This document shows positions 12,128 to 61,856 of a stretch of 64,000 nt of DNA, one piece after another (position 1 is the stretch's first letter; the number at the start of each line of letters is the position of its first letter). The translations under genes and the position numbers were made by a program. The stretch comes from a virus, in IMG/VR virus record IMGVR_UViG_3300035698_012970, positions 24,152 to 88,151 of that record, one strand, 5' to 3'. The notes under the pieces were generated by a model. That model was given only the letters and a program-made list of their open reading frames with translations. It did no database searches and had not been told where the DNA came from.

Positions 12128-12988
12128 TTATTCTGCGTTATTTGGTACAAGGTTTCTGATATATTCACGATCCTGTGTGAATGTTGGGGTATCTAGATCT
12201 GTTATCCATTTAGTTCTAGTGCTACCCTCTCCTCTAGTACCAATATTCCCGTCTGGCATTAGACTTGCACTGATTAGCTTATAGTCAATAACCTCAGTCA
12301 CTTTTCTAATAACAGCTCCTCTTTTCTTTCTAATTTCAGCCTTATCCCAATTAACACCCTTTTGAAACATCATTTCCTGCATCTCGTCTGTTTTCTTGCC
12401 ATTTAATTCTTTGTGTGAATATAAACATTGTGCACATGACGAGATTGAATTTCTAACCGCATCTTGTTGTCTCCAAACTAGATAATTTATAACCTCAGTT
12501 AATGTAGGGAGTTGGAAAACCCTTGCATCAAACATAGCTATCTTTTTACTCATATCTTCCATCTCGACCCATTCAAAATTTGGACGCATTGTCTTTTCAT
12601 CAATATGCGCAATCTCTTTTAGCCCTCTAATAAATCTTAGCTGATTAAATTTCGCTGTTGCTAAAGATGCAGCGACAGATGTTATCTTCTGTATAGTCCC
12701 ATCAAACCATGCTTCGGTATTAAGATTATCAAAATCAGTAAGAATTACTGAAATCTCGTCTGATTGGACATAAGCAAGTTTAGCTCCCATGATTTCTTTA
12801 CATAGATATTCAGCAGTTGAATTCATATCTTCTATGAATCCATGATCAAAAGGTCTTATTAAACCTCTTGTATATGTGTGGAATGCTTTACCGTCAATTC
12901 TAATGACAGTATAACTTCTTCTCATTAATTTTTGTTTAGTACGACTTTCGTAGTACGATTTCATTCTATCTCCTAAGTTGTCTTTCAT
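12128..12988 (-). CDS. thg1: tRNA(His) guanylyltransferase / Thg1-like protein
   Basis: RIDGKAFHTYT, YVQSDEIS, FDARVF and WRQQDAVRNSI motifs. Confidence 0.95.
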   Translation of the reverse strand: MKDNLGDRMKSYYESRTKQKLMRRSYTVIRIDGKAFHTYTRGLIRPFDHGFIEDMNSTAEYLCKEIMGAKLAYVQSDEISVILTDFDNLNTEAWFDGTIQKITSVAASLATAKFNQLRFIRGLKEIAHIDEKTMRPNFEWVEMEDMSKKIAMFDARVFQLPTLTEVINYLVWRQQDAVRNSISSCAQCLYSHKELNGKKTDEMQEMMFQKGVNWDKAEIRKKRGAVIRKVTEVIDYKLISASLMPDGNIGTRGEGSTRTKWITDLDTPTFTQDREYIRNLVPNNAE

Positions 12989-16585: not shown

Positions 16586-17695
16586 TTATGGGTAATCAAA
16601 AGTTATAGCAAATTCCATATCAAGGAAATCTTTGATATCCTTAACGAATTCAGTTTCTGTTTTGGGTCTATAAACTACACCATTTTTAGTGTAAGCCCAA
16701 TTATCTCTAACAAGATCTAAACATGTTATAACAATTGTTCTTCTCTTTGCATTTCTAATATAAGGATCTTTATTTACAGCGTGTTTTAATAAATCAAGAT
16801 CCAACATAGTTCTTCTGAACTCGCCTTGAAATTTATTACGTATATTTGTTTCGTATGGATTTTTCTTTATATCATATTTAATATGTTCATTTGTCATTGG
16901 TCCATTACCATGACGAGTTTGATACGCTCTTGTAACAAGATATAAATTAACATCACTATCATCACCTTCTAATATTTCAAGAACGTTAGTCATGCCAACG
17001 TTAGATCTAGTAACATGTGGAAAAAATCCATAATGTTGATCAAGTAATAATCCTTGTGAACTTTCAAAAATTAAGTTATTATATTCTTTATGAACATTAT
17101 CTCTAATTTCTATATAAGGACTATCTAACATTTCCTGTACTGCATTCAAGAACATAGTTACTCGATTATCCCTCATGTGAGGTGGCATATTATTATCTAT
17201 GTAATAATATTCCCTAAATAGTTTTATTTTAGTTTCAAGGACATCCCTATTTAATAAATCTCCTGCAGTCAACGAGAAGAATTTTTCTTCTCGTTCAAAT
17301 GTATTACCAACTCCTGTTCCGCATGTTCCATGTTTGGAATTCTCATAATCTATTACCTTATCTAATGGTAAAGTAACAGGAGCATCCGGGCTGATGTATA
17401 ACATAGGTTTAACCCCTTTTTCTAAGAGTAGATGTAGTTCCCTTATAAGACCCATTGGATCTACAGTACAATACTTAGTCCAATAAGTTGGGAGTCCTTG
17501 AAAACTACCAGAACCGAAGTTAGAAAAGATATGATATTCTTCTCCGTCTCTTACTCCGTGCCCAGCTTGTTGTCCCCCAGAGAATCTAATTACAATAGTA
17601 GATCCTTTATAAGCTGCAAGTGCGAGGGCATTGACAGTTCTGCCTTTGCCCTCGTCTCCAAATATTAACCCAATTACAACATCCCTTGTTCTCAT
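16586..17695 (-). CDS. purA: Adenylosuccinate synthetase-like protein
   Basis: FGDEGKG, RFSGGQQAGH, FESSQGLLLD, FPHVTRS and TRHGNGP motifs. Confidence 0.85.
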   Translation of the reverse strand: MRTRDVVIGLIFGDEGKGRTVNALALAAYKGSTIVIRFSGGQQAGHGVRDGEEYHIFSNFGSGSFQGLPTYWTKYCTVDPMGLIRELHLLLEKGVKPMLYISPDAPVTLPLDKVIDYENSKHGTCGTGVGNTFEREEKFFSLTAGDLLNRDVLETKIKLFREYYYIDNNMPPHMRDNRVTMFLNAVQEMLDSPYIEIRDNVHKEYNNLIFESSQGLLLDQHYGFFPHVTRSNVGMTNVLEILEGDDSDVNLYLVTRAYQTRHGNGPMTNEHIKYDIKKNPYETNIRNKFQGEFRRTMLDLDLLKHAVNKDPYIRNAKRRTIVITCLDLVRDNWAYTKNGVVYRPKTETEFVKDIKDFLDMEFAITFDYP

Positions 17696-22861: not shown

Positions 22862-24369
22862 ACAACTTTTGCGATTTCTTTATATCTAAACTTATAATTT
22901 TTTATCATAAACTTAAGCATTTCCAAACTTGAAGCACAGATTATAAATCCATGATTTTTGAGGTTCATAGCAAAACCACTAGTATGTAGGTAATTTCTAT
23001 CTTTAAACTCCCCTATGATAGCGTTATATTCCCTCATATCACCGCATGGATAGTAATCTTTCGTCGTAGGAGTATGAGAAAGATTAGCATGTCCGTGGAT
23101 CATATAATTGATTTTTGGGAAATGCTCATATAACGCTACTTGAATTGGTGTGTCAACAGATGGTTTCTTATCTCCATAATAACCAATTTTATCACCATCT
23201 TTTGTTACACAAACAAAGTCATCTGCTCCCAAATATTCTTTTGGTGCATTTCTTTTTGAAACCCAAATACCCCCTTGTTTTCCTCTTGCAGTAGGAAACA
23301 TTTTTTTACATCGGGTTGATGCATTACCAAAATATCTTCCACCTCTTTCGTTCTCGACTTTTTTAGCAACATTCTTTACAATCTCTGAGAAACTGTTTAA
23401 TGTTTTAGGTGGTTCTATTGGAGCTACGCCACCAAGGTGACTTGATCCTTTACGTATAGATCCTTTAGTCCATCCATAGAATTTAAGGATACTTTTACCC
23501 AATTTATCTATGTCACTAGTAAGTCCCCAACTGTTACCTAAAGCATCAATTAAATTAAATTTATATGGTTTTTGTGTTTTGTCTATTGCAATGACTGCGT
23601 TAGCACCCATTTTGAAGATCCTTGAAACTGCATCACCTAAGGCAGACTCCATTGATTCCATTGAAACCAATCCCTTCTCAGTCACAAGATTTCTTAAAAC
23701 CTTAGTTACTATCATGACTGAGCCTTTAGGTTTCTTTGGATAGATCTTATTAATCGAATTATCAACGTTTGCTCCCCAGATAATTAAATCCTGATCTAAA
23801 TTAGTAGCCAATCTTAATATATCTAGACTTCCGCCATTTACAACATCAGAATTTAACTGTAAACCAAGTTCATTAATTATATTTGATGAATGTGATTTAC
23901 TTAGATCATTATCGAATGTTCCGCCAACAATAATTGGATTTTCTGGTAGTGCATTAAAAACTTCATTACTCAAAGCTTTTTTCAATTCTTTTACTTTAGG
24001 TTTGATTTTCCAAGTATCAATCACTTTTATATTATCTGTCCAAAATTGGATTGCTTGTACCTCTTCCTCTAATCCAAATGCATACATTTTATACCCAATT
24101 TCATGATTAGTTATTATTTTATGTGATACTCTCCAAGCTCTTGGTAACTCTACATAATTAATAGCTAATGCTTGATCCCAAACTTTATACCCAACAAAGA
24201 TAGCTAAGATTGGTCTGCTGATTTCAGAATCATCTTTAATATGTCTAAATAGAATATAGTCACCAAATTTCCATTCAGTATCTACTTCTAGAAAATACTC
24301 AACATTTTCTTTTAATTTTTCATATTTATTAAACCAATGTCGTGCTTGATATATGGCGTCGAATGTCAT
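22858..24369 (-). CDS. Protein with C-terminal class II aldolase/adducin domain
   Basis: GNASTR, KPSVDTPIQ..LY, IHGH and LKNHG motifs. Confidence 0.75.
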   Translation of the reverse strand: MTFDAIYQARHWFNKYEKLKENVEYFLEVDTEWKFGDYILFRHIKDDSEISRPILAIFVGYKVWDQALAINYVELPRAWRVSHKIITNHEIGYKMYAFGLEEEVQAIQFWTDNIKVIDTWKIKPKVKELKKALSNEVFNALPENPIIVGGTFDNDLSKSHSSNIINELGLQLNSDVVNGGSLDILRLATNLDQDLIIWGANVDNSINKIYPKKPKGSVMIVTKVLRNLVTEKGLVSMESMESALGDAVSRIFKMGANAVIAIDKTQKPYKFNLIDALGNSWGLTSDIDKLGKSILKFYGWTKGSIRKGSSHLGGVAPIEPPKTLNSFSEIVKNVAKKVENERGGRYFGNASTRCKKMFPTARGKQGGIWVSKRNAPKEYLGADDFVCVTKDGDKIGYYGDKKPSVDTPIQVALYEHFPKINYMIHGHANLSHTPTTKDYYPCGDMREYNAIIGEFKDRNYLHTSGFAMNLKNHGFIICASSLEMLKFMIKNYKFRYKEIAKVV

Positions 24370-33967: not shown

Positions 33968-34303
33968 TTATTTATTAGGATATCCATCCTCTAATTTCTT
34001 CAGATCTCCAGCAAGTCTTTTTACCAGACTTTCATCCCCGTCATCACCTGAAAGGAACTAATCTATCCTTTGTGCAAATATAGCTGCTCGTTTAAGTTGA
34101 TGTACAGCTTCTTGCATAACAATATTTATCTCTTTAGAATACTTAATATGAAACTTCTCTTCAGGATATTTTTCGTAATACTCGTCACTAGACCATAATT
34201 CATCCTTATCTTTCTCCCTACCTTGTTTGGTAATTACTCTTTCTATTTGGTCCGCAATCTCATCTATCTTATATTGACCATAATCAAAATATCCTCCGCT
34301 CAT
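33968..34303 (-). pseudogene. Conserved-looking phage protein interrupted by an in-frame TAG
   Basis: ...FAQRID*FLSGDDGDESLVKRLAGDLKKLEDGYPNK; TAG at 34058-34060 is probably from TGG. Confidence 0.65.
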
Positions 34304-35093
34304 AATATTTAAGTTTTATAATTATAATAACGTTTCTTATAATCTTCAAAAGCATTATATACAGTATCACCAATTCCATAATAATTTGGAAATACATTTT
34401 TATCTATCCATTTTTCCAAATCATAATGGGGTTCTTCAAGCTCCTGAAGATCTTGGATAACACTATTCTCAGCAATTGTATTAGCTATAACTATTTTACC
34501 ACCATATCTCATGCTAATAATAGTTAATGGATAAATATCCTCAATCTTTTCAACCTTAATCTTTTTATTCATCAATTTCACTTTGTAATAAGTCTATAAA
34601 ATCACTACCCGACCATTCTTCGCCTTCTGTATTACCATATAATAAAGAATCCAATTCTTCTTTAAATCTAGTAGCATCAAATGTCACATACCCACAATCA
34701 CCTATCCCAGGATCTGCCTGTACGTCATATTCTCTATCATCGACCTTTAAAATACAGCTACCAGTACATGATGAACACTCGTCTTTTTTATAACCTGATG
34801 TCTGAAGATATCCATCATTACTCAACCATTTATGCTTATAATATAAGCGATGTAAATTATCTATTTTACATAGTAGTTTTTTAGCTGATTTAGCATATTG
34901 TAAAGAAGGCATTTTAGGATTGGGTATTTCACTAATATCCATATCAAATAGGTCATCTACTTCCATAGTTTATAGATTTATATTAAACTATAGATAGGAA
35001 GTTTCGCTATTGTATAAGGAAAGTTGTTTCGCTACTATAGTAGCGAAAATTGATAGTTTATAGTGATTTTAGCTACTCTGGTAGCGAAAATTG

Positions 35094-35174
35094 AGGCAGC
35101 GGAGGGATTCGAACCCTCGAAGCTTTCGCAGTAGATTTGCAATCTACCCCCTTTGGCCACTCGAGAACACTGCC
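35094..35174 (-). tRNA. tRNA-Cys(GCA) with long variable arm
   Basis: GTAGA-TTGCAAA-TCTAC anticodon arm, U73, GTTCGAATC T-loop. Confidence 0.85.
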
Positions 35175-35261
35175 ATTTTAATAGATAAAGAGGATCTCGA
35201 CTTCTCTTTCCAATTCCTAAACAGAGTTTCACCCCTCGAAGTACACATTATCTATTATTTG

Positions 35262-35348
35262 AAGAGAGTAACGGATTCGAACCATCGAGCCCCGTGAAGG
35301 GCTACCTACTTTCCAGGCAGGTGCCTTAAGCCACTCGGCCAACTCTCT
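35262..35348 (-). tRNA. tRNA-Ser(GGA)
   Basis: CCTGC-CTGGAAA-GTAGG; long variable arm. Confidence 0.9.
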
Positions 35349-35365
35349 AGTTATCAATAAGTTAG

Positions 35366-35452
35366 CGGAAGATGAGGGATTCGAACCCTCGGGACGCTTT
35401 CGCGCCCACTGGTTTAGCAAACCAGCCATTTAAGCCACTCATGCAATCTTCC
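35366..35452 (-). tRNA. tRNA-Ser(GCT)
   Basis: CTGGT-TTGCTAA-ACCAG; long variable arm. Confidence 0.92.
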
Positions 35453-35457
35453 AGTTT

Positions 35458-35547
35458 TGGAGGAAGGAGGTGGTCTTGATCCACACCCGATCTAACGAGA
35501 CCTGGTTTTCAAGACCAGTCGGAGCACCCGCCCCTGCTTCACCTTCC
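35458..35547 (-). tRNA. tRNA-Ser(TGA), atypical 8/4-like fold, CCA encoded
   Basis: CTGGT-CTTGAAA-ACCAG; acceptor GGAAGGTG/CTCCTTCC; T-stem GTGG/CCAC. Confidence 0.8.
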
Positions 35548-35554
35548 AAATTTG

Positions 35555-35636
35555 TATCTCAGGTGGGACTCGAACCCACACTCCTTTCGGAACTAGGCCC
35601 TCGACCTAGCGCGTCTACCAATTCCGCCACTGAGAT
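35555..35636 (-). tRNA. tRNA-Leu(GAG)
   Basis: CTAGG-TCGAGGG-CCTAG; Leu-type D-loop. Confidence 0.9.
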
Positions 35637-35658
35637 ATATTTAATTTTAATGTTAAAA

Positions 35659-36330
35659 CTAATTATGTAAACTATGACAATTTGGACATAACATTTGTAA
35701 ATTATTTAACTTATGATTTCGGTTATTACCATCAATATGATGTAATTCTATACATAATTCTACCCTTTGCCATATACTTATTCCACATCTTTCACATTTA
35801 TTTTCTTTTATACCTTCCTTTAGCAATCTTTTCTTTAGTTTATGTGTTTGATAGTTTGGGTGTTTTCCTTCTAGAATTTCTTTCAGTTGAATTTTTCTGA
35901 AACTTTTCCTTCTAGTCCCCTTTAGTCCAACATTAGGTTGATAAACACCAAGATTCTTAGCTCTTTTTCTAAGAGTTAAAAAAGAAACCCCTAATGATTC
36001 TGCTGCTTGACCCATACTTAAACTTTCTTTACATGATTTGATTATTTCATCATCACTAACTTTCATATTATATTTTGCAACACACGTTTGACTACAAAAT
36101 TTGGGATTTTTGTTTGTTTTACTACCAGTAAAATATTCATTACAATATTTACACTTTACAGTTAGTCCTTCTTTAGTTATTCCTCTTTCTTTAAAGGTGT
36201 TACTTACTTTTTCGTTAATTTCCTTTCTGTTCTTTTTAGTCGAAAAGCATCTAGCACATTTTGTTGAACAAAATCTACCAGAGCCATATTCTCCCTCGTG
36301 CTCAATGCCACAATTTTCACAAATTCTCAT
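35659..36330 (-). CDS. HNH homing endonuclease with MRICENC N-terminal module
   Basis: CERCG...ELHHIDGNNRN.KLNNLQMLCPNCH. Confidence 0.9.
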   Translation of the reverse strand: MRICENCGIEHEGEYGSGRFCSTKCARCFSTKKNRKEINEKVSNTFKERGITKEGLTVKCKYCNEYFTGSKTNKNPKFCSQTCVAKYNMKVSDDEIIKSCKESLSMGQAAESLGVSFLTLRKRAKNLGVYQPNVGLKGTRRKSFRKIQLKEILEGKHPNYQTHKLKKRLLKEGIKENKCERCGISIWQRVELCIELHHIDGNNRNHKLNNLQMLCPNCHSLHN

Positions 36331-36420
36331 GATAATAGTTTTATTCTATATATCAATTCGAACTGTTGTTTTATGGTCCATTATTGATATACTTCAAAAA
36401 TGGACCATAAATTCATCATA

Positions 36421-36434
36421 ATTTCAAAGAACGC
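36421..36434 (-). promoter_or_regulatory. boxA-like antitermination motif
   Basis: GCGTTCTTTGAAAT, similar to the copies at 52100 and 61642. Confidence 0.55.
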
Positions 36435-36438
36435 ATCG

Positions 36439-36518
36439 TGATCCGGGAGGGACTCGAACCCTCAATCCGAAGAAATAGGGCTTAAACCTATCGTGTATGC
36501 CAATTTCACCACCGGACC
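36439..36518 (-). tRNA. tRNA-Leu(TAA)
   Basis: ATAGG-TTTAAGC-CCTAT. Confidence 0.9.
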
Positions 36519-36527
36519 TTTTAATCG

Positions 36528-36601
36528 TACTCCTGGAGGGACTCGAACCCTCAAAAACATGTGCCTAAAACATGCGCGTATACCAATTCCGCCACAGGAG
36601 C
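36528..36601 (-). tRNA. tRNA-Leu(TAG), short variable loop
   Basis: CATGT-TTTAGGC-ACATG. Confidence 0.88.
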
Positions 36602-36612
36602 TTTAATTTTTG

Positions 36613-36684
36613 GGTGTTATTTGGGAATTGAACCCAAATTACTTGGACCACAACCAAGCGTCTTACCATTAGACCAATAACACC
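36613..36684 (-). tRNA. tRNA-His(GTG) with encoded G-1
   Basis: CTTGG-TTGTGGT-CCAAG; G-1:C73 pair. Confidence 0.92.
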
Positions 36685-36691
36685 ATGTAAT

Positions 36692-36726
36692 AAAAAAGGT
36701 CCTTCGGAATTACCGAAGGACCTTTT
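36692..36726 (-). terminator. Attenuator terminator of tRNA operon 1
   Basis: GGTCCTTCGG-TAATT-CCGAAGGACC-TTTTTT, 7 nt upstream of tRNA-His. Confidence 0.9.
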
Positions 36727-36755
36727 AGTTATGTATTATTAACTTTAACTTAAGC

Positions 36756-36842
36756 TCAGCAAATCCTTATATCGTTCCTACCATGTAAATGGGAGAGCGA
36801 ACTTAGACAGCTTAATAGACTTATGTTAATTATGTTTTTCAT
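36756..36842 (-). CDS. Leader peptide 1 (MKNIINISLLSCLSSLSHLHGRNDIRIC)
   Basis: 28-codon ORF between promoter and terminator; codons 8-20 are all Ser/Leu/Cys/His. Confidence 0.85.
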   Translation of the reverse strand: MKNIINISLLSCLSSLSHLHGRNDIRIC

Positions 36843-36848
36843 TGTTTC

Positions 36849-36922
36849 TTATAGATTATATATCAATTTTGTTTCGTTTTTTATTTAATACAAATATAGA
36901 TCTTATTTACGTAATAAAAAAA
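36849..36922 (-). promoter_or_regulatory. Stacked promoters of tRNA operon 1
   Basis: Early-type motif at 36891-36922, GAAAC-N17-TATAA at 36849-36875, GATATATA at 36857-36864. Confidence 0.75.
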
Positions 36923-37672
36923 TTAAAAGCCAAGTTTTTCCAAATCAAAATAAATATCTAATCCTTCTCTATATTTTTCAGGTATTATTAATTTATTCTT
37001 CATTCTTTGGAAAAAAGCTTCATCCCATACATTTCTAAGTATTTTCATAGTTTGTAAAGGATTTTTTTCTATTTCACTATTAAAATAATCAGCATTTAAT
37101 ACTGTCATTGCTAGTTTCTTAGCTTCAATTCTACCTTTATACTTAAGTACATTTTTGAATCCTTTTGGATATGGATTATACCAGCCCCCACCTAATATCT
37201 CGAATTCACTACAATTAAAATAACTCTCTAATTTTTTAGGAGCCCCTTTTACACTAGTAAGCTCATTACCTAAAACATTATAAGAACCTGTAACCTCTTT
37301 TGGCCCGCCACGAAGATCCTTTAGTTTGTTTGACTGACATCTAAAATCGCCAGTTTTCTTTGGTCCTCCTTTAAGGGTAGTTAATATATTATGATCACAA
37401 TTAAATTCACGGGTAACTTCTTTAGGAGCACCTTCGAGTGTAGCTAAGATATTATGAGAACAATTGAAGTTACCAGTTACTTTATTAAAAACAATTCCAT
37501 TAAAATCACTTAATTCAGACTTAGAGCAATCAAAATCGCCTATAACGTCGATCATACCTTTTATGGTTTCCTTCCATTTACCAATAGTATACTCATTTAA
37601 GAAATCAACTTGCTCTTCGGTTATAGTACTTTCAGATTCATTTAGCTCGTTAAAATATTTTAGATGCTCCAT
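36923..37672 (-). CDS. LRR-like repeat protein, putative virion-internal
   Basis: FNCSHNILATLEGAPKEV-type repeats; MEHLKYFNELNE N-terminus. Confidence 0.7.
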   Translation of the reverse strand: MEHLKYFNELNESESTITEEQVDFLNEYTIGKWKETIKGMIDVIGDFDCSKSELSDFNGIVFNKVTGNFNCSHNILATLEGAPKEVTREFNCDHNILTTLKGGPKKTGDFRCQSNKLKDLRGGPKEVTGSYNVLGNELTSVKGAPKKLESYFNCSEFEILGGGWYNPYPKGFKNVLKYKGRIEAKKLAMTVLNADYFNSEIEKNPLQTMKILRNVWDEAFFQRMKNKLIIPEKYREGLDIYFDLEKLGF

Positions 37673-39101
37673 CTATTTTTTAAAATATTTATCGTACATC
37701 ATTTCACCAATATATCTAATTCTCTTTCCTTGTAACCAAATTTCGTTTGCTTCCTCACACATTGCTTCGGTCATATCATTTCTAACCATATTAATGACAT
37801 TATCATATGCATCAAATGCTTTCTCGCTTATTCCTTTCTCATCTGTAATGATCCCAATAATCTCATTCTCTATTCTTTTTCTGAAAGCTTCTACATGAGT
37901 AACTGCTCTACCAAAAAAATCTTCATAAGACATATCAGATTCATGGATTGGTCTTTTAATAGGATTACCAATACCTCTATCTCTATGTATGGTTTTAATA
38001 TATTGTGCTACGTGCTTGATACTTTCCAATGCAGATTTATCATCTACGTTAAATTGTGTCTTGATCTTAGCTATTAGGGCATCAAAGAGCTCATAAGTTT
38101 TATCATATACCTTTGTAGATGGTAAAATACTTAGTCCTACTCTTTCGTTCATGGATGAATCATATTCTTTTAAGTTTTCCATTATTTAATCTCCAAAAAA
38201 GATTTGTTAGGAACTACTGCTGAAATAGATCCTTCATCTTCTCCTATATTTTTATAATAATAACCACTTTTAGCATTACCCATTTTTAAATTCCTCATCA
38301 TCATGATATTTGCTTTTTCGTCAGTATGCGGATTATTTGTGGTATTAGTCATTTGACCTATGATTCTAACCGGGAATACTATTGGCTTAGAATCAAAAGG
38401 GATTTGATTATTATCAGAATAAACGGCTCTATAATTTCTATCTGTCGTATAGTAATCATCCTCGGGCACATCGCTTCCACAATTATATCCACTATCACAA
38501 TAGTACCCTAATTCATCTTTTTTCCTCTTTAGTGCTTCTTTGCCAGCTAATAATGTTTTCCCATATTCTCTAGTTCCATCCCATTCACCTTCGGCAGGAA
38601 CTCCAATTCTTGCTTGTAATGCTTGTGTTGCAGCTAATTTAGTTCCGATATGAATACCTTTCTTACCACTTAGATCCTTATTTGCCGAGCCGTGATAAAA
38701 TCCTCGACTTCCACTATAATTTTCATTTAAGAATTGTTCCCAATTATTGATCATCCTGTTGAATCTATAAATTTGATCTCCTTAGCGGTAATACCGTCTG
38801 GCTTTTCGTGGGATTTACTACGCCCACGGTGTGTATGTATAAAATATCCATTCTTGTCAATACCCATATCAAACCCATTTGGGTAATTGCCTTTACTGAT
38901 TTTCTTTTTAAGGTCTGGGTGTAGATTAAGTCCTGAGATTATTCCATTTTTGGCTCTTGAATATTCCTTACATAAAGAAACAGCAACCTCTTTAAGTTCT
39001 TTGGAAATTCCTTTTAGATATTTAATTGATTTTTCGATTGGTACGCTATCGTCAATCTGCTTAAAATTTTCGTAAAGTTCTAAATGTTCCATATAATGCA
39101 A
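37673..39101 (-). other. Three late-type genes (37673..38182; 38182..38754 ART-like FYHGS; 38751..39101)
   Basis: Coupled ORFs with capsid-targeting-like N-termini, downstream of GATATATA at 39109. Confidence 0.6.
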
Positions 39102-48287: not shown

Positions 48288-48320
48288 AAAAAAGGTTCTT
48301 TAACAAACTAAAGAACCTTC
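48288..48320 (-). terminator. Intrinsic terminator
   Basis: AAGGTTCTTTA-loop-TAAAGAACC-TTTTTT after ORF 48341..48811. Confidence 0.8.
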
Positions 48321-49457: not shown

Positions 49458-49533
49458 TTGGAAGAGGGGGACTTGAACCCCCGAAACCTCTACATTATCA
49501 GTGTAGCGCTCTAACCAACTGAGCTACCTTCCA
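49458..49533 (-). tRNA. tRNA-Ile(GAT)
   Basis: CTACA-CTGATAA-TGTAG. Confidence 0.92.
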
Positions 49534-50179
49534 AAGTGTTTATTATATTAGTAATTGATTCTATGATATTATCATCTGGCCATTTTATTCGATAAACTTT
49601 CCATCCTTGTGATTTCAATTTGGAATCTTTTTCTATATCAACTTTTTTTCTTTCTGGTTTATTGTGTTGTTGTCCATCAATTTCAATGACAATCTTATCT
49701 TCATGTAGTGCAAAATCAGCAAAATATTTACCAAATTTCCATTCATATTCATATTCTATACCCAAGCTATCTAACGTTCTAATTGCTATAGATTCTGGAT
49801 AAGACGGCTCTAGTTTTTTTCGAGTTTTCCAACCAAAAGAGACGTCACCATCAGCATGTCTTTTCTTAGCCATTATTGAATTCTTTTCTGCAATTTTTTC
49901 TTTGTAACCTGGTGTTTTCCATTTCAATTCAGCCGAACATGATCTAGAGCAAGTTTTCTGATTTTTTTTTCTCCATTTTACTTCAAACTCTTCCTTACAG
50001 TTCTGACAAATTAACTTTATTTTACCAGGTCCTTTATTAAACAACGTATCGGATACTTTCTTATTGAGATCTTCTCGATTTACTTTAGTAGCAAACCCTC
50101 TAGCGCATTTTATAGAACAAAATCTTCCGGAACCATAAGATCCATCATGTTTAACCCCGCAATTTTCACAAATCATCAT
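49511..50179 (-). CDS. DUF559/Vsr-like homing endonuclease with MICENC N-terminal module
   Basis: YFADF...IVIEIDGQQH...D..L...GWKVYRI; the stop codon lies inside tRNA-Ile. Confidence 0.85.
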   Translation of the reverse strand: MMICENCGVKHDGSYGSGRFCSIKCARGFATKVNREDLNKKVSDTLFNKGPGKIKLICQNCKEEFEVKWRKKNQKTCSRSCSAELKWKTPGYKEKIAEKNSIMAKKRHADGDVSFGWKTRKKLEPSYPESIAIRTLDSLGIEYEYEWKFGKYFADFALHEDKIVIEIDGQQHNKPERKKVDIEKDSKLKSQGWKVYRIKWPDDNIIESITNIINTLEGSSVG

Positions 50180-50232: not shown

Positions 50233-50309
50233 TCGGCAAAGAGGGATTTGAACCCCCGTGTGACCAGCTAACCTTTCTACCGGATATCAGCCGGAGGGTA
50301 TACTTGCCG
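50233..50309 (-). ncRNA. D-armless tRNA-like RNA with GAT loop
   Basis: Acceptor CGGCAAG/TTTGCCG, CCGG-CTGATAT-CCGG, T-arm GGGGG-TTCAAAT-CCCTC. Confidence 0.65.
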
Positions 50310-50372: not shown

Positions 50373-50441
50373 ATGTTTTCTTTGTGCTTTTGTCGATGTT
50401 GGGGCACTGCCAAAACAGTAAAAACCTTACTATAACCCATG

Positions 50442-50529
50442 CTCTTGGGGTAGGATTCGAACCTACGATGGAACTTTCGCTCACCGGATTAACAGTCCGG
50501 ACCGTTCGGCCAACTACGGCAACCCAAGA
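50442..50529 (-). tRNA. tRNA-Asn(GTT) with long variable arm
   Basis: CCGGA-CTGTTAA-TCCGG; G73. Confidence 0.85.
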
Positions 50530-50541
50530 ATTTTATTTTAG

Positions 50542-50614
50542 CGCTCATAGAGGGATTCGAACCCCCAACCCTTACGTTAACAGCGTAGCGCTCTACCATT
50601 GGAGCTATATGAGC
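50542..50614 (-). tRNA. tRNA-Asn(GTT)
   Basis: TACG-CTGTTAA-CGTA. Confidence 0.9.
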
Positions 50615-51291
50615 TAGTGTATAAACTTATATGCTTCTTGTATCCAATATTTCGGATTATTAAACATATCTTTCCATTTTATTCTCAAAATTTGCCAACC
50701 TTCTTCTATTAAAGATTGGTCTTTTCTTTTGTCTCGTTCAATATACTCTTCGAATCTTTGATGCTGTTCCCCATCAATCTCTATAGCTTTCTTTTTGTTA
50801 ACCCAAGCAAAATCTATAGCATATATTGAAACTGGATATTCAGTTTCGTACTCTTTATCCAGGAAATTATTTTCTATTACTCTTTCAAAAAATTCTTCTG
50901 GGTATGATTTTTCGTTATTCCACCTACTTTTACCTATATTCCAAGCCCTTCCATCTTTATGAGCTTTTTCCATTGATTCGCTAATCAAACTTTTACTAAA
51001 TTCACTATGTTTTCTCCCAATTCCAGATTTAGCAATTTTTGCTAGCCTTTCTTCTCTCTTTGGGTTCATCTTACATAACGTCTTATGTCCTCCTAGTTTC
51101 CACCCATTACTAAATTCATTTCCACAGTATTCACAAATCCAAGGACCTTCAGACTTTTTCCTAATCCTCTTTGATTTACCTTTACTTCTACCTTTCTTAT
51201 AACTTTCTCCTCTGTTGTGTGATGATACATGACCACCTAAAGATTCTTTCTTATCAAACTTTTTACCACAAATTTTACATTGATGTTTCAT
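50614..51291 (-). CDS. C2H2 zinc-finger plus DUF559-like homing endonuclease
   Basis: CKICGKKF...LGGH; YAIDFA...AIEIDGEQH...GWQILRI. Confidence 0.85.
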   Translation of the reverse strand: MKHQCKICGKKFDKKESLGGHVSSHNRGESYKKGRSKGKSKRIRKKSEGPWICEYCGNEFSNGWKLGGHKTLCKMNPKREERLAKIAKSGIGRKHSEFSKSLISESMEKAHKDGRAWNIGKSRWNNEKSYPEEFFERVIENNFLDKEYETEYPVSIYAIDFAWVNKKKAIEIDGEQHQRFEEYIERDKRKDQSLIEEGWQILRIKWKDMFNNPKYWIQEAYKFIH

Positions 51292-51607: not shown

Positions 51608-51819
51608 GTATATTTTATAATGTAGAAATTAATTCTTGATAACTATAATAGGATCTCCATTTATGATTGCTTGTGGATTTTCTATGTGTTTATTAAGAAA
51701 ATATAAATTATTTTTATTATAGCAATTATCTATAGAAAAAATGTATTTTTCCCCTATCTTATTTATTCTATATATCTAACTCGAACTTGGATTTTATCAA
51801 ATCTCTCGTTTAAAACTAG

Positions 51820-52094
51820 TACCCCCGGAGAGACTCGAACTCTCAACCTACGGCTTAGCTTACCAGCTACAGTTTTCACTGCCACATATGTGTTTGTGGT
51901 CTGGACTATCCCTTCATCATATTAATTTAACTTAGATGACCGCCGTCTAGTCTCTACACCTTCCTATCGCTAGGCTTGGCTCGGGATTACCATTTTAAAG
52001 GCTTCCCCGAATTTGACGGTTTACATTTTATAAATTTCTCTATAAAAGCTCCTATTCGAAGGCCGTTGCTCTTAATCCATTGAGCTACAGGAGC
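51820..52094 (-). tRNA. tRNA-Arg(TCT) interrupted by a group I intron
   Basis: Exons join as ACGGC-CTT|CTAA-GCCGT. Confidence 0.88.
51859..52058 (-). mobile_element. Group I intron (200 nt, no ORF)
   Basis: P AATTCGGGGAA, Q AATCCCGAGC, R TAGAGACTAGA, S AAGGGATAGTCC; follows a U and ends in G. Confidence 0.9.
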
Positions 52095-52099
52095 AAATT

Positions 52100-52118
52100 A
52101 CCAACATGTCAAAGAACT
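52100..52118 (-). promoter_or_regulatory. boxA-like antitermination motif
   Basis: AGTTCTTTGACATGTTGGT, identical to 61642-61660. Confidence 0.75.
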
Positions 52119-52160
52119 TGTCAATTTTTGTTTTGGTTGACATTCCAAAAGTTTACTTAT

Positions 52161-52192
52161 AAAAAAATAGGTTCCATTTCTGAAACCTATTT
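52161..52192 (-). terminator. Attenuator terminator of tRNA operon 2
   Basis: AATAGGTTTC-AGAAAT-GGAACCTA-TTTTTTT. Confidence 0.85.
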
Positions 52193-52217
52193 GTATATTA
52201 TCGTTACTGTTTTAAAG

Positions 52218-52304
52218 TCACGTTTGATGCAATAGGTTACATGGATTCATATCCCAGATAAAATCTGATCTAAAATTATTAATATTTCTTCCTTGTTCTA
52301 ACAT
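52218..52304 (-). CDS. Leader peptide 2 (MLEQGRNINNFRSDFIWDMNPCNLLHQT)
   Basis: 28-codon ORF between promoter and terminator; core rich in Arg/Asn/Ile/Asp/Trp/Met. Confidence 0.8.
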   Translation of the reverse strand: MLEQGRNINNFRSDFIWDMNPCNLLHQT

Positions 52305-60212: not shown

Positions 60213-60935
60213 CTATATATTTGAAATTATCTTATTTTTAAATTCTTTCAGTGTATAAATTACGCTGAAATTAAGGTTTAATTCCTTATATAAATCTAAT
60301 TTATTGAGCCAATATTCATAATCCTTGCCCAACCACTTCTTCCTTTTCTCCCTGTTAATACCATCCAATTCGATCCACTCATCGCTTTCTAACAAATATA
60401 CATCAGATACCTTAGCAGATTCTGGGATTGGTTTATGTGCTTCGAATAGAATCTGATTATCTTCCAATAGTTCATAACATTCTTTTTCCAGAATGGATTC
60501 ATACCTAGTTCCACCCTTTGTTATCCCTTTAGTTCCAAATCCTCCCTTTCTTCCAATCTCTCTTAACCTTTTTCTTTCTTCTATATTCTCACACTGCTTT
60601 TTCTTAGCGATTGATATTTTTTCTCTAGTCTCTGGTAGTATCTCTCTATTCTTCATAAACTTGGAGATATCTTTTCTACGTTCATCAGTAAAGGAGTTTA
60701 ACACGCTATTCTTTATTTTCTCCCTGACCTCTTGTCTATGTGATCCATTATTTATAGACATCCTCTCTTTCTGACTTTCGGTAAGTGGTCTACCCTTTAA
60801 ACTTTTGCTAACTTTTTGGTTAATCTCCTTTCTTTTAGATTTAGTGCTAAACCCTCTAGCACACTTTGGTGAACAGAATCTACCAGATCCATATTCTCCA
60901 CTATGTTCGCTTTCACAATTTTCACAAATTCTCAT
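60213..60935 (-). CDS. PD-(D/E)xK homing endonuclease with MRICENC N-terminal module
   Basis: ESILE, VSDVYL...WIELDG; NUMOD3-like linker. Confidence 0.75.
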   Translation of the reverse strand: MRICENCESEHSGEYGSGRFCSPKCARGFSTKSKRKEINQKVSKSLKGRPLTESQKERMSINNGSHRQEVREKIKNSVLNSFTDERRKDISKFMKNREILPETREKISIAKKKQCENIEERKRLREIGRKGGFGTKGITKGGTRYESILEKECYELLEDNQILFEAHKPIPESAKVSDVYLLESDEWIELDGINREKRKKWLGKDYEYWLNKLDLYKELNLNFSVIYTLKEFKNKIISNI

Positions 60936-60985
60936 GATTGTTTTATTTTATATATCATTCGAACTCATGACTTTTTGTTTGCTTG

Positions 60986-61197: not shown

Positions 61198-61267
61198 TGG
61201 GATAGGAGAGACTCGAACTCTCCAAGGCTGAGGGTTTACAATCCTGGCCAGTATCCTTTCACATCCC
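61198..61267 (-). ncRNA. D-stem-less tRNA-like RNA with GTA loop
   Basis: GGGATG/TATCCC acceptor; GAGAG-TTCGAGT-CTCTC T-arm. Confidence 0.55.
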
Positions 61268-61384: not shown

Positions 61385-61400
61385 GATTTCTAATAATTTG

Positions 61401-61495
61401 TGACCCCTCTGGGGCTCGAACCCAGGACCCCCTGATTAAATCTTGATATTTCTTAACTAAAGTCAGGTGCTCTAAGCCAACTGAGCTAAGAGGTC
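61401..61495 (-). tRNA. tRNA-Lys(TTT) with a 20-nt anticodon-loop insertion
   Basis: CCTGA-CTTT[insert]TAA-TCAGG; other arms canonical. Confidence 0.8.
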
Positions 61496-61641: not shown

Positions 61642-61660
61642 ACCAACATGTCAAAGAACT
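61642..61660 (-). promoter_or_regulatory. boxA-like antitermination motif
   Basis: AGTTCTTTGACATGTTGGT, preceded by a TGTAAAT/ATTTACA hairpin. Confidence 0.75.
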
Positions 61661-61694
61661 GTAAATTTGAGGTATTTACAAAACCTATATCAAC

Positions 61695-61726
61695 AAAAAA
61701 GCCTAAATCTTTTGGATTTAGGCTTT
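61695..61726 (-). terminator. Attenuator terminator of tRNA operon 3
   Basis: GCCTAAATC-CAAAA-GATTTAGGC-TTTTTT. Confidence 0.9.
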
Positions 61727-61745
61727 ATCATTATAGTAATTATTA

Positions 61746-61856
61746 TTACATGATATTATGTAAAGCCCAAAATCCTCCCTCTTCATACTTCTTATAGTAT
61801 GCTACCACGACAGAGCGTGAAGAGTTGTTTACAGTATTTAAGCTATTCAAATTCAT
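61746..61856 (-). CDS. Leader peptide 3 (MNLNSLNTVNNSSRSVVVAYYKKYEEGGFWALHNIM)
   Basis: 36-codon ORF between promoter and terminator; core of Arg/Val/Tyr/Lys/Glu codons. Confidence 0.85.
   Translation of the reverse strand: MNLNSLNTVNNSSRSVVVAYYKKYEEGGFWALHNIM

Follow-up and report, generated by a model that had tools for sequence, protein, structure and literature searches.

The DNA analysed here (the window) comprises the final 64 kb of the 88,151-base virus record IMGVR_UViG_3300035698_012970 of IMG/VR (record positions 24,152 to 88,151), for which CheckV estimates a completeness of 38%. The window has a G+C content of 32%, and its minus strand carries nearly all of the genes. On this strand lies a cluster of transfer RNA (tRNA) genes for His, Leu, Ser and Cys, referred to here as operon 1, which is preceded by a short open reading frame (ORF), leader ORF 1, running from an ATG at 36842 to a TGA at 36758–36756, and by an intrinsic terminator. 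We refer to this arrangement as unit 1 (Table 1; all positions are those of the window) and analyse it as a candidate ribosome-mediated, or leader-peptide, transcription attenuator that would control the expression of phage tRNAs.

Codons 8–20 of the leader encode S L L S C L S S L S H L H. They read AGT CTA TTA AGC TGT CTA AGT TCG CTC TCC CAT TTA CAT, exactly as quoted in a preliminary description of this DNA, and its statement that all 13 can be read by the downstream tRNAs holds under standard wobble, with each of the eight tRNAs used at least once. The regulatory codons of unit 1 are cognate to the products of the genes that follow, and the run stands directly before the single cluster that encodes those four tRNA identities. 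The probability of a 13/13 match, a calculation that the same description had proposed, is about 10−9 to 10−10 per position: Ser, Leu, His and Cys account for 17.3% of the codons in long ORFs, which gives 1.3 × 10−10, and the base composition of the minus strand gives 1.2 × 10−9, corresponding to 2 × 10−4 runs expected across the whole record. In the six frames of the 88-kb record this is the sole run of 11 or more such codons; the next-longest runs have 10 codons, both on the non-coding strand, and the run of leader 1 scores highest in the record under stringent scoring. If 13 codons of these four amino acids are drawn according to genome usage, the chance that every one of the eight tRNAs is represented is 0.09.

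The terminator lies between the leader ORF and the tRNA genes, and no other clean terminator on the coding strand of the record is as strong as its hairpin proper (36724..36696, 13 pairs, −20.7 kcal/mol). The terminator starts 31 nucleotides (nt) past the leader stop codon and ends 7 nt before the G−1 of tRNA-His; because a gap of 7 nt is too small for a promoter, tRNA-His should be reachable solely by read-through of the hairpin. The leader frame has plausible start signals, namely its ATG and the motif GATATATA, which occurs in the whole record in 15 copies on the coding strand compared with 2 on the opposite strand. Thirteen of the 15 coding-strand copies sit 12–32 nt upstream of an ORF-opening ATG, and the motif precedes leader ORF 1 (+22), the leader ORF of sister unit 3 described below (+29) and endonuclease genes (for example, at 36857–36864, 36347–36354 and 60949–60956). 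It is likely to be a phage-specific promoter or gene-start signal, and its placement as before real genes suggests that the phage treats the short leader frame like a gene. The promoter-like block farther upstream is conserved across three leader regions and has further copies elsewhere in the record; its element TATATTTG fits what we take to be the −7 box consensus of Bacteroidota, TAnnTTTG.

Table 1. Features of unit 1, of tRNA operon 1 and of the two sister units in the window
Feature	Position	Strand	Basis
Promoter-like block with T-rich stretch, ATTACGTAAA, then TATATTTG at 36898–36891	36891..36923	minus	Alignment of three leader regions
GATATATA, gene-start/promoter-like motif, 22 nt upstream of leader ATG	36857..36864	minus	Motif count
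Leader ORF 1, 28 codons plus TGA (MKNIINISLLSCLSSLSHLHGRNDIRIC)	36756..36842	minus	Strand reading and ORF list
Regulatory run, 13 consecutive Ser/Leu/His/Cys codons (codons 8–20)	36783..36821	minus	Six-frame scan
Candidate region 2 (5′ half of anti-terminator), AAGGATTT at 36768–36761 or UUUGCUGAGCUU at 36762–36752	36752..36768	minus	Duplex and fold energies
Intrinsic terminator, stem of 13–14 base pairs (bp), 5-nt loop, six T at 36697–36692	36692..36726	minus	Hairpin search and folding
tRNA-His(GTG), G−1 encoded at 36684	36612..36684	minus	ARAGORN and Rfam; G−1 from sequence
tRNA-Leu(TAG)	36527..36601	minus	ARAGORN and Rfam
tRNA-Leu(TAA)	36438..36518	minus	ARAGORN and Rfam
boxA-like element GTTCTTTGAAAT inside operon 1, after third tRNA	36421..36432	minus	Exact match to GTTCTTTGAMAT
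HNH-type homing-endonuclease-like ORF splitting the cluster, with its own GATATATA motif	35659..36330	minus	DNA similarity
tRNA-Leu(GAG)	35554..35636	minus	ARAGORN and Rfam
Probable tRNA-Ser(TGA), atypical	35462..35547	minus	Sub-threshold Rfam match
tRNA-Ser(GCT)	35365..35452	minus	ARAGORN and Rfam
tRNA-Ser(GGA)	35261..35348	minus	ARAGORN and Rfam
tRNA-Cys(GCA)	35093..35174	minus	ARAGORN and Rfam
Sister unit 2	52160..52304	minus	Leader 52304..52218 (28 codons), terminator 52191..52166
Sister unit 3	61693..61856	minus	Leader 61856..61746 (36 codons), terminator 61725..61699

Folding of the unit 1 RNA yields candidates for the alternative structures expected of an attenuator. The minimum-energy fold of the whole leader contains a 1:2 hairpin, in which the regulatory region pairs with the end of the ORF, together with the 3:4 terminator. 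When a stalled ribosome is masked and the polymerase stands just past the loop, region 2 (36762..36752 or AAGGATTT) pairs with the 5′ arm of the terminator, and the local fold with the ribosome masked gives this anti-terminator −9.4 kcal/mol. Region 2 overlaps or abuts the stop codon, which its UUUGCUGAGCUU alternative spans, and lies 15 nt beyond the end (36783) of the final regulatory codon. Both candidates for region 2 would be covered by a ribosome that has reached the stop codon, whereas one stalled in the run would leave region 2 free.

Unit 1 shares its promoter block, spacing and logic with two sister units in the window, each of which serves a different set of amino acids. In unit 2, the leader core RNINNFRSDFIWDMN (52289..52245) encodes R N I N N F R S D F I W D M N, and 12 of these 15 codons match the tRNAs of cluster 2, which follow the terminator and comprise Arg (TCT, intron-bearing), Asp, Trp, two Asn, Ile and Met. 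The core of leader 3, RSVVVAYYKKYEE, encodes R S V V V A Y Y K K Y E E, with 11 of 13 codons matching the cluster 3 tRNAs Glu, Lys, Val, Tyr and Arg(ACG). Ranked among the six-frame segments of the record by their own codon sets, core 2 is second and core 3 about third to fifth, and when each of the three leaders is compared with each of the three clusters, the correct assignment outscores the five other possible ones. Both anti-terminators beat shuffled sequence (shuffle fraction 0.05 for unit 2 and 0.02 for unit 3): region 2 of unit 2, AACCTATT, copies the 3′ arm of its terminator, and unit 3 has a strong anti-terminator, GGATTTTGGGCTTT, with a whole-fold z of −4.5. An identical 19-mer, AGTTCTTTGACATGTTGGT (52100–52118 and 61642–61660, minus strand), follows a small hairpin in both operon 2 and operon 3 and sits downstream of the attenuator terminator but ahead of the first tRNA.

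This 19-mer is found in 27 IMG/VR contigs, mostly adjoining tRNA clusters, and we sought further units in these contigs with a blind script that asked for a terminator, an ORF of 12–60 codons ending less than 70 nt upstream of it and a tRNA no more than 260 nt downstream. In the fetched loci, tRNAs were called with ARAGORN only, and a cluster was taken to end at the next unit or at a 3-kb gap. The layout was recovered in 12 further units from 8 contigs, with a distance of 20–32 nt from stop codon to terminator. Across the resulting 15 units, the fraction of leader residues served by a tRNA of the leader's own cluster is higher than in permuted pairings (z = 6.1, P ≤ 5 × 10−6), and the match also holds at the codon level. 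Leaders cover 0.97 of the amino acids of their own clusters compared with 0.75 when pairings are permuted (P ≤ 10−5); 13 of the 15 contain every amino-acid identity of their own cluster, and the correct leader–cluster pairing is the best in all five genomes with several units. At one locus (L020), for example, a leader beginning MKTNKQHMVINVKSQFSNCWYPRISH precedes tRNAs for Pro, Ile, Lys, Cys, Trp, Asn, Tyr, Gln, Met, Val, Phe, His, Ser and Arg, and the other leader, MKNLNIILLGGTEADTLTRTAMV, precedes Asp, Ala, Met, Gly, Leu, Thr and Glu. Complementarity of region 2 to the 5′ arm of the terminator beats about 94% of shuffles or more in 12 of the 15 units; those passing this level of about 6% are units 2 and 3 and 10 of the 12 units from other contigs. 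Because leaders match their own clusters far better than swapped ones, attenuation that senses decoding speed is well supported for these units as a class.

The preliminary description had further suggested that the leader senses individual isoacceptors, pointing to the GC-rich codons TCG, CTC and TCC of leader 1. Across the 15 leaders, codons read by tRNAs with U34 end in G in 42 of 97 cases compared with 19.8 expected from the usage of each locus (P = 3 × 10−7), with TCG, CCG, GCG, ACG and GTG recurring and TCG standing out among the codons for Ser-TGA. This excess suggests selection for test codons that are read slowly, by wobble. TCG in leader 1 fits this general habit, but CTC and TCC reflect no general feature, as codons ending in C for tRNAs with G34 show no excess across the leaders. 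Codons for Arg track the isoacceptor of the leader's own cluster: AGA is used in leader 2 (Arg-TCT) and CGC in leader 3 (Arg-ACG), and before clusters with Arg-ACG only, five of six leader Arg codons belong to the CGN box, against backgrounds of 0.17–0.43. When Arg, Ser and Leu are combined, however, the codon-level excess is marginal (P = 0.03 under strict and 0.12 under loose scoring). Isoacceptor-level sensing is thus suggested by the Arg codons and the G-ending bias but not clearly by the combined counts, and we regard it as a suggestive and reasonable refinement of the model.

We read unit 1 as a leader-peptide transcription attenuator that senses decoding speed and gates a phage tRNA operon, and assign this reading a probability of roughly 0.72. 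The proposal that such an attenuator stands before the operon and polls codons of the operon's own tRNAs, made at the outset from the letters of the sequence, has gained the backing of the record statistics, two sister units and 12 further units. From the arrangement of these features we infer translation of the leader, ribosome stalling, a switch in RNA structure and tRNA supply as the signal, as follows. Transcription would start at a phage- or Bacteroidota-type promoter approximately 20–60 nt upstream of the leader ATG, and a ribosome would translate the 28-codon leader. If the 13 codons were read quickly, the ribosome at the stop codon would cover region 2 (36768–36752), the 13-bp terminator would form and the polymerase would halt 7 nt before tRNA-His. 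If a codon were read slowly, because the matching tRNAs were scarce, cleaved or uncharged, the ribosome would stall inside the run; the stall would open the leader hairpin and free region 2 to pair with the 5′ arm of the terminator, and the anti-terminated polymerase would continue into the tRNAs for His, Leu (three), Ser (three) and Cys. As the products of the operon are the tRNAs needed by the test codons, the circuit would form a negative feedback loop on decoding capacity.

Several observations weigh against this reading. The anti-terminator that the preliminary description had proposed, with AAGGATTT (36768–36761) pairing with the 5′ arm of the terminator, does have its 8 pairs, two of them G-U, but the duplex is weak and at the level of chance: with its extension it reaches −8.6 kcal/mol, which 24% of shuffled leaders equal. 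The anti-terminator of unit 1 thus stands at −8.6 to −9.4 kcal/mol against −20.7 kcal/mol for the terminator, and the 1:2 hairpin of the leader has a z of −0.9 relative to shuffles. Seven of the eight tRNAs attributed to the operon are confirmed by both ARAGORN and Rfam, but Ser-TGA is a sub-threshold call on which ARAGORN is silent and for which the Rfam tRNA-Sec model gives 38.1 bits (E = 3.4 × 10−5), below the gathering score; its anticodon loop reads CTTGAAA, and we take 35547..35462 to be a probable tRNA-Ser(TGA). With a start motif of its own, the endonuclease-like gene that splits the cluster may also allow the tRNAs of the second half to be transcribed apart from the attenuator. The units of related phages are not fully independent, although a reduced set of 12 units gives the same result. 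No close relative of this phage was found in which conservation or covariation of the ORF and helices of unit 1 could be followed: a blastn search of 50,697 phage records matched solely tRNA and endonuclease pieces, a search for related loci with the 249-amino-acid repeat protein encoded upstream, which has homologues, returned no locus, and neither an exact 25-mer from tRNA-His nor an exact 22-mer from the promoter block had a match in IMG/VR. The leader DNA is identical in contigs of two salt-lake runs, which leaves no natural variation there.

The chance-level structures lend some weight to an alternative in which the leader does report decoding speed but the hairpin of unit 1 is not regulated, being a constitutive terminator or insulator, or a stem for 5′ processing or stability of the tRNA precursor; the codons would then act in another way, through access of Rho or RNase or through transcript stability, or the peptide itself would be the product. 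This hairpin lies just 7 nt from tRNA-His and greatly exceeds its counterparts in units 2 and 3 in strength, and unit 1, unlike those two units, has no boxA-like element between the terminator and the first tRNA. We nevertheless consider this alternative unlikely. Spacing, promoter block and logic are those of units 2 and 3, the layout is that of the 12 other units, most units carry a clear copy of the terminator 3′ arm inside the end of the leader ORF, and no other promoter for tRNA-His is visible. Moreover, the classical trp attenuator has a similarly weak 2:3 helix (about −12 kcal/mol) and strong 3:4 helix (about −20 kcal/mol), so that the energy imbalance of unit 1 is not disqualifying by itself. 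The same switch could instead respond to amino-acid supply through tRNA charging, so that a host short of Ser, Leu, His or Cys would trigger more transcription of the tRNA genes. Established leader-peptide attenuators respond to charged-tRNA levels, to our knowledge without exception, and uncharged tRNAs are inseparable from missing ones on the basis of sequence alone. More tRNA would not relieve starvation, however, and the loop would stay open; the leaders also follow the tRNAs of their own clusters, for Arg even at the level of the isoacceptor, and correspond to no biosynthetic pathway. For these reasons we prefer tRNA supply as the signal and hold the charging signal to be improbable. A fortuitous match, with a leader that is either no genuine ORF or the gene of a small hydrophobic peptide of unrelated function, and with a hairpin that merely ends an upstream transcription unit, has in its favour that Ser- and Leu-rich stretches of low complexity occur, as do the 10-codon runs on the non-coding strand. 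We judge it very improbable, given that a 13-codon run is expected approximately 2 × 10−4 times in the record by minus-strand composition, that this run is located exactly before the matching tRNAs and that the coincidence repeats at two other clusters in the window and in 12 units of other phages.

The mechanism proposed for unit 1 is closest to the multivalent enterobacterial attenuators thrL (Thr and Ile), ilvL and ivbL (Leu, Val and Ile) and to the run type represented by hisL, with its seven His codons, pheL, leuL and trpL. As proposed for unit 1, these have a short translated leader with a run of regulatory codons, followed by an intrinsic terminator, and an alternative pairing that becomes available when the ribosome stalls and is hidden once the ribosome has arrived at the stop codon. 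The mechanism is textbook knowledge for amino-acid operons and a few others, in which leader-peptide attenuation reports amino-acid supply. The enterobacterial systems control biosynthetic enzymes, whereas the phage units control tRNAs in a Bacteroidota-phage setting; the leader of unit 1 reads four amino acids and eight isoacceptors, and leaders in other phages read up to about 14 amino acids. Enterobacterial leaders have no sequence similarity to unit 1, which matches no Rfam leader family. In its target, unit 1 is closest to the leader of Escherichia coli pheST (pheM), also an attenuator that acts on a component of the translation machinery through cognate codons; pheST differs in encoding an aminoacyl-tRNA synthetase, in concerning one amino acid and in lying on a bacterial chromosome. 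The sensed signal is closest to that of T-box riboswitches, in which tRNA status likewise chooses between terminator and anti-terminator upstream of translation-related genes, although T-boxes bind uncharged tRNA directly, without translation. An Rfam search of positions 34000–38000 at E ≤ 1 returned tRNAs and chance matches only, with no leader family such as His_leader, Leu_leader, Thr_leader or Trp_leader, no riboswitch and no T-box, and at the gathering threshold the whole window yielded only tRNAs and one group I intron. A full-text literature search found no paper on leader-peptide control of tRNA genes.

The 19-mer shared by units 2 and 3 resembles what we take to be the rrn boxA consensus and also occurs 27 to 34 nt upstream of the 23S ribosomal RNA (rRNA) gene, in the 16S–23S spacer, of two Bacteroidales genomes. 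The shorter form GTTCTTTGAMAT has three exact matches in the window, all on the minus strand and one per tRNA operon; the match in operon 1 is a 12-nt variant of the 19-mer at 36421–36432. The 19-mer is probably an rrn-type boxA antitermination signal borrowed by phage tRNA operons, and by analogy it would bind NusB/NusE and keep the polymerase processive past the attenuator. The element here would act as an accessory downstream of the attenuator and would not itself be the sensor. We had also considered the TTGACA within the 19-mer as a sigma-70 −35 box in units 2 and 3, and dropped this reading because the 19-mer precedes 23S rRNA in Bacteroidales and the promoters look Bacteroidota-type.

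The endonuclease-like ORF in operon 1 (35659..36330) is similar in its DNA to T4-like phage genes annotated as HNH or homing endonucleases, and its product has an HNH-like C terminus; Pfam gave no match at E ≤ 0.001. Four ORFs of 222–240 amino acids lie among the tRNA genes on the minus strand (35659–36330, 49511–50179, 50614–51291 and 60213–60935), and at least three of them start with M(R/M)ICENCG. They are probably homing endonucleases that split tRNA operons.

Operons 2 and 3 contain several unusual tRNA and tRNA-like genes, all on the minus strand. The first gene of operon 2 (51819–52094) is a tRNA with a group I intron (Rfam Intron_gpI, 81.5 bits, 51882–52069). Splicing after U34, assigned by hand, would yield the anticodon TCT for Arg, in agreement with the two AGA codons of leader 2; the alternative from ARAGORN is Thr(cgt) with a 185-nt intron. 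A tRNA-like gene at 50441–50529 combines an Asn anticodon (GTT) with a long variable arm, and a tRNA-like RNA at 50233–50309 (26.7 bits) has a GAU anticodon loop and lacks a D-arm. In operon 3, ARAGORN run with introns allowed shows 20 inserted nt in the anticodon loop of tRNA-Lys(TTT) at 61400–61495, which are too few for a self-splicing intron, and 61198–61245 is a minihelix of acceptor and T arms only (13.9 bits). Neither the tRNA-like piece at 50233–50309 nor those located between the Lys and Val genes of operon 3 could be identified as tRNAs. A clean intrinsic terminator at 48292–48319 (minus strand), one of few others on the coding strand, follows tRNA-Met and an ORF of 156 amino acids and probably marks the end of operon 2.

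The DNA of this phage is present in salt-lake metagenomes from two studies, and no RNA run is among those listed for it. A large protein encoded at 65–2722 of the window carries the C-terminal sorting domain of type IX secretion (Pfam Por_Secre_tail). This domain, the fit of TATATTTG to the −7 box and the element in common with Bacteroidales rRNA operons indicate that the host is most likely a member of the Bacteroidota. Pfam also identifies a protein of the Thg1-like tRNA-His guanylyltransferase family at 12128–12988 and an adenylosuccinate synthetase at 16586–17695.

If our reading of unit 1 is correct, a textbook attenuation device has apparently been wired to tRNA genes, with the ribosome as the gauge of decoding capacity and the output as the means of restoring it. 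One leader can poll many codons together, and several leaders can split the genetic code among the operons of one genome. A broader proposal, which is possible but which we regard as doubtful at present, is that Bacteroidota phages run a homeostat of tRNA supply at near-isoacceptor resolution, in which each block is transcribed only while ribosomes stall on its own test codons, with a preference among these for G-ending codons read by wobble and for codons tied to a single isoacceptor, and that losses of particular host tRNAs, for instance to anticodon nucleases or to decay during infection, are thereby detected and repaired without overproduction. Attenuation of this kind would offer a testable answer to how large phages time the expression of their tRNA arsenals, would link phage tRNAs to host defences that target tRNA and would provide compact natural sensors for the supply of individual tRNAs.

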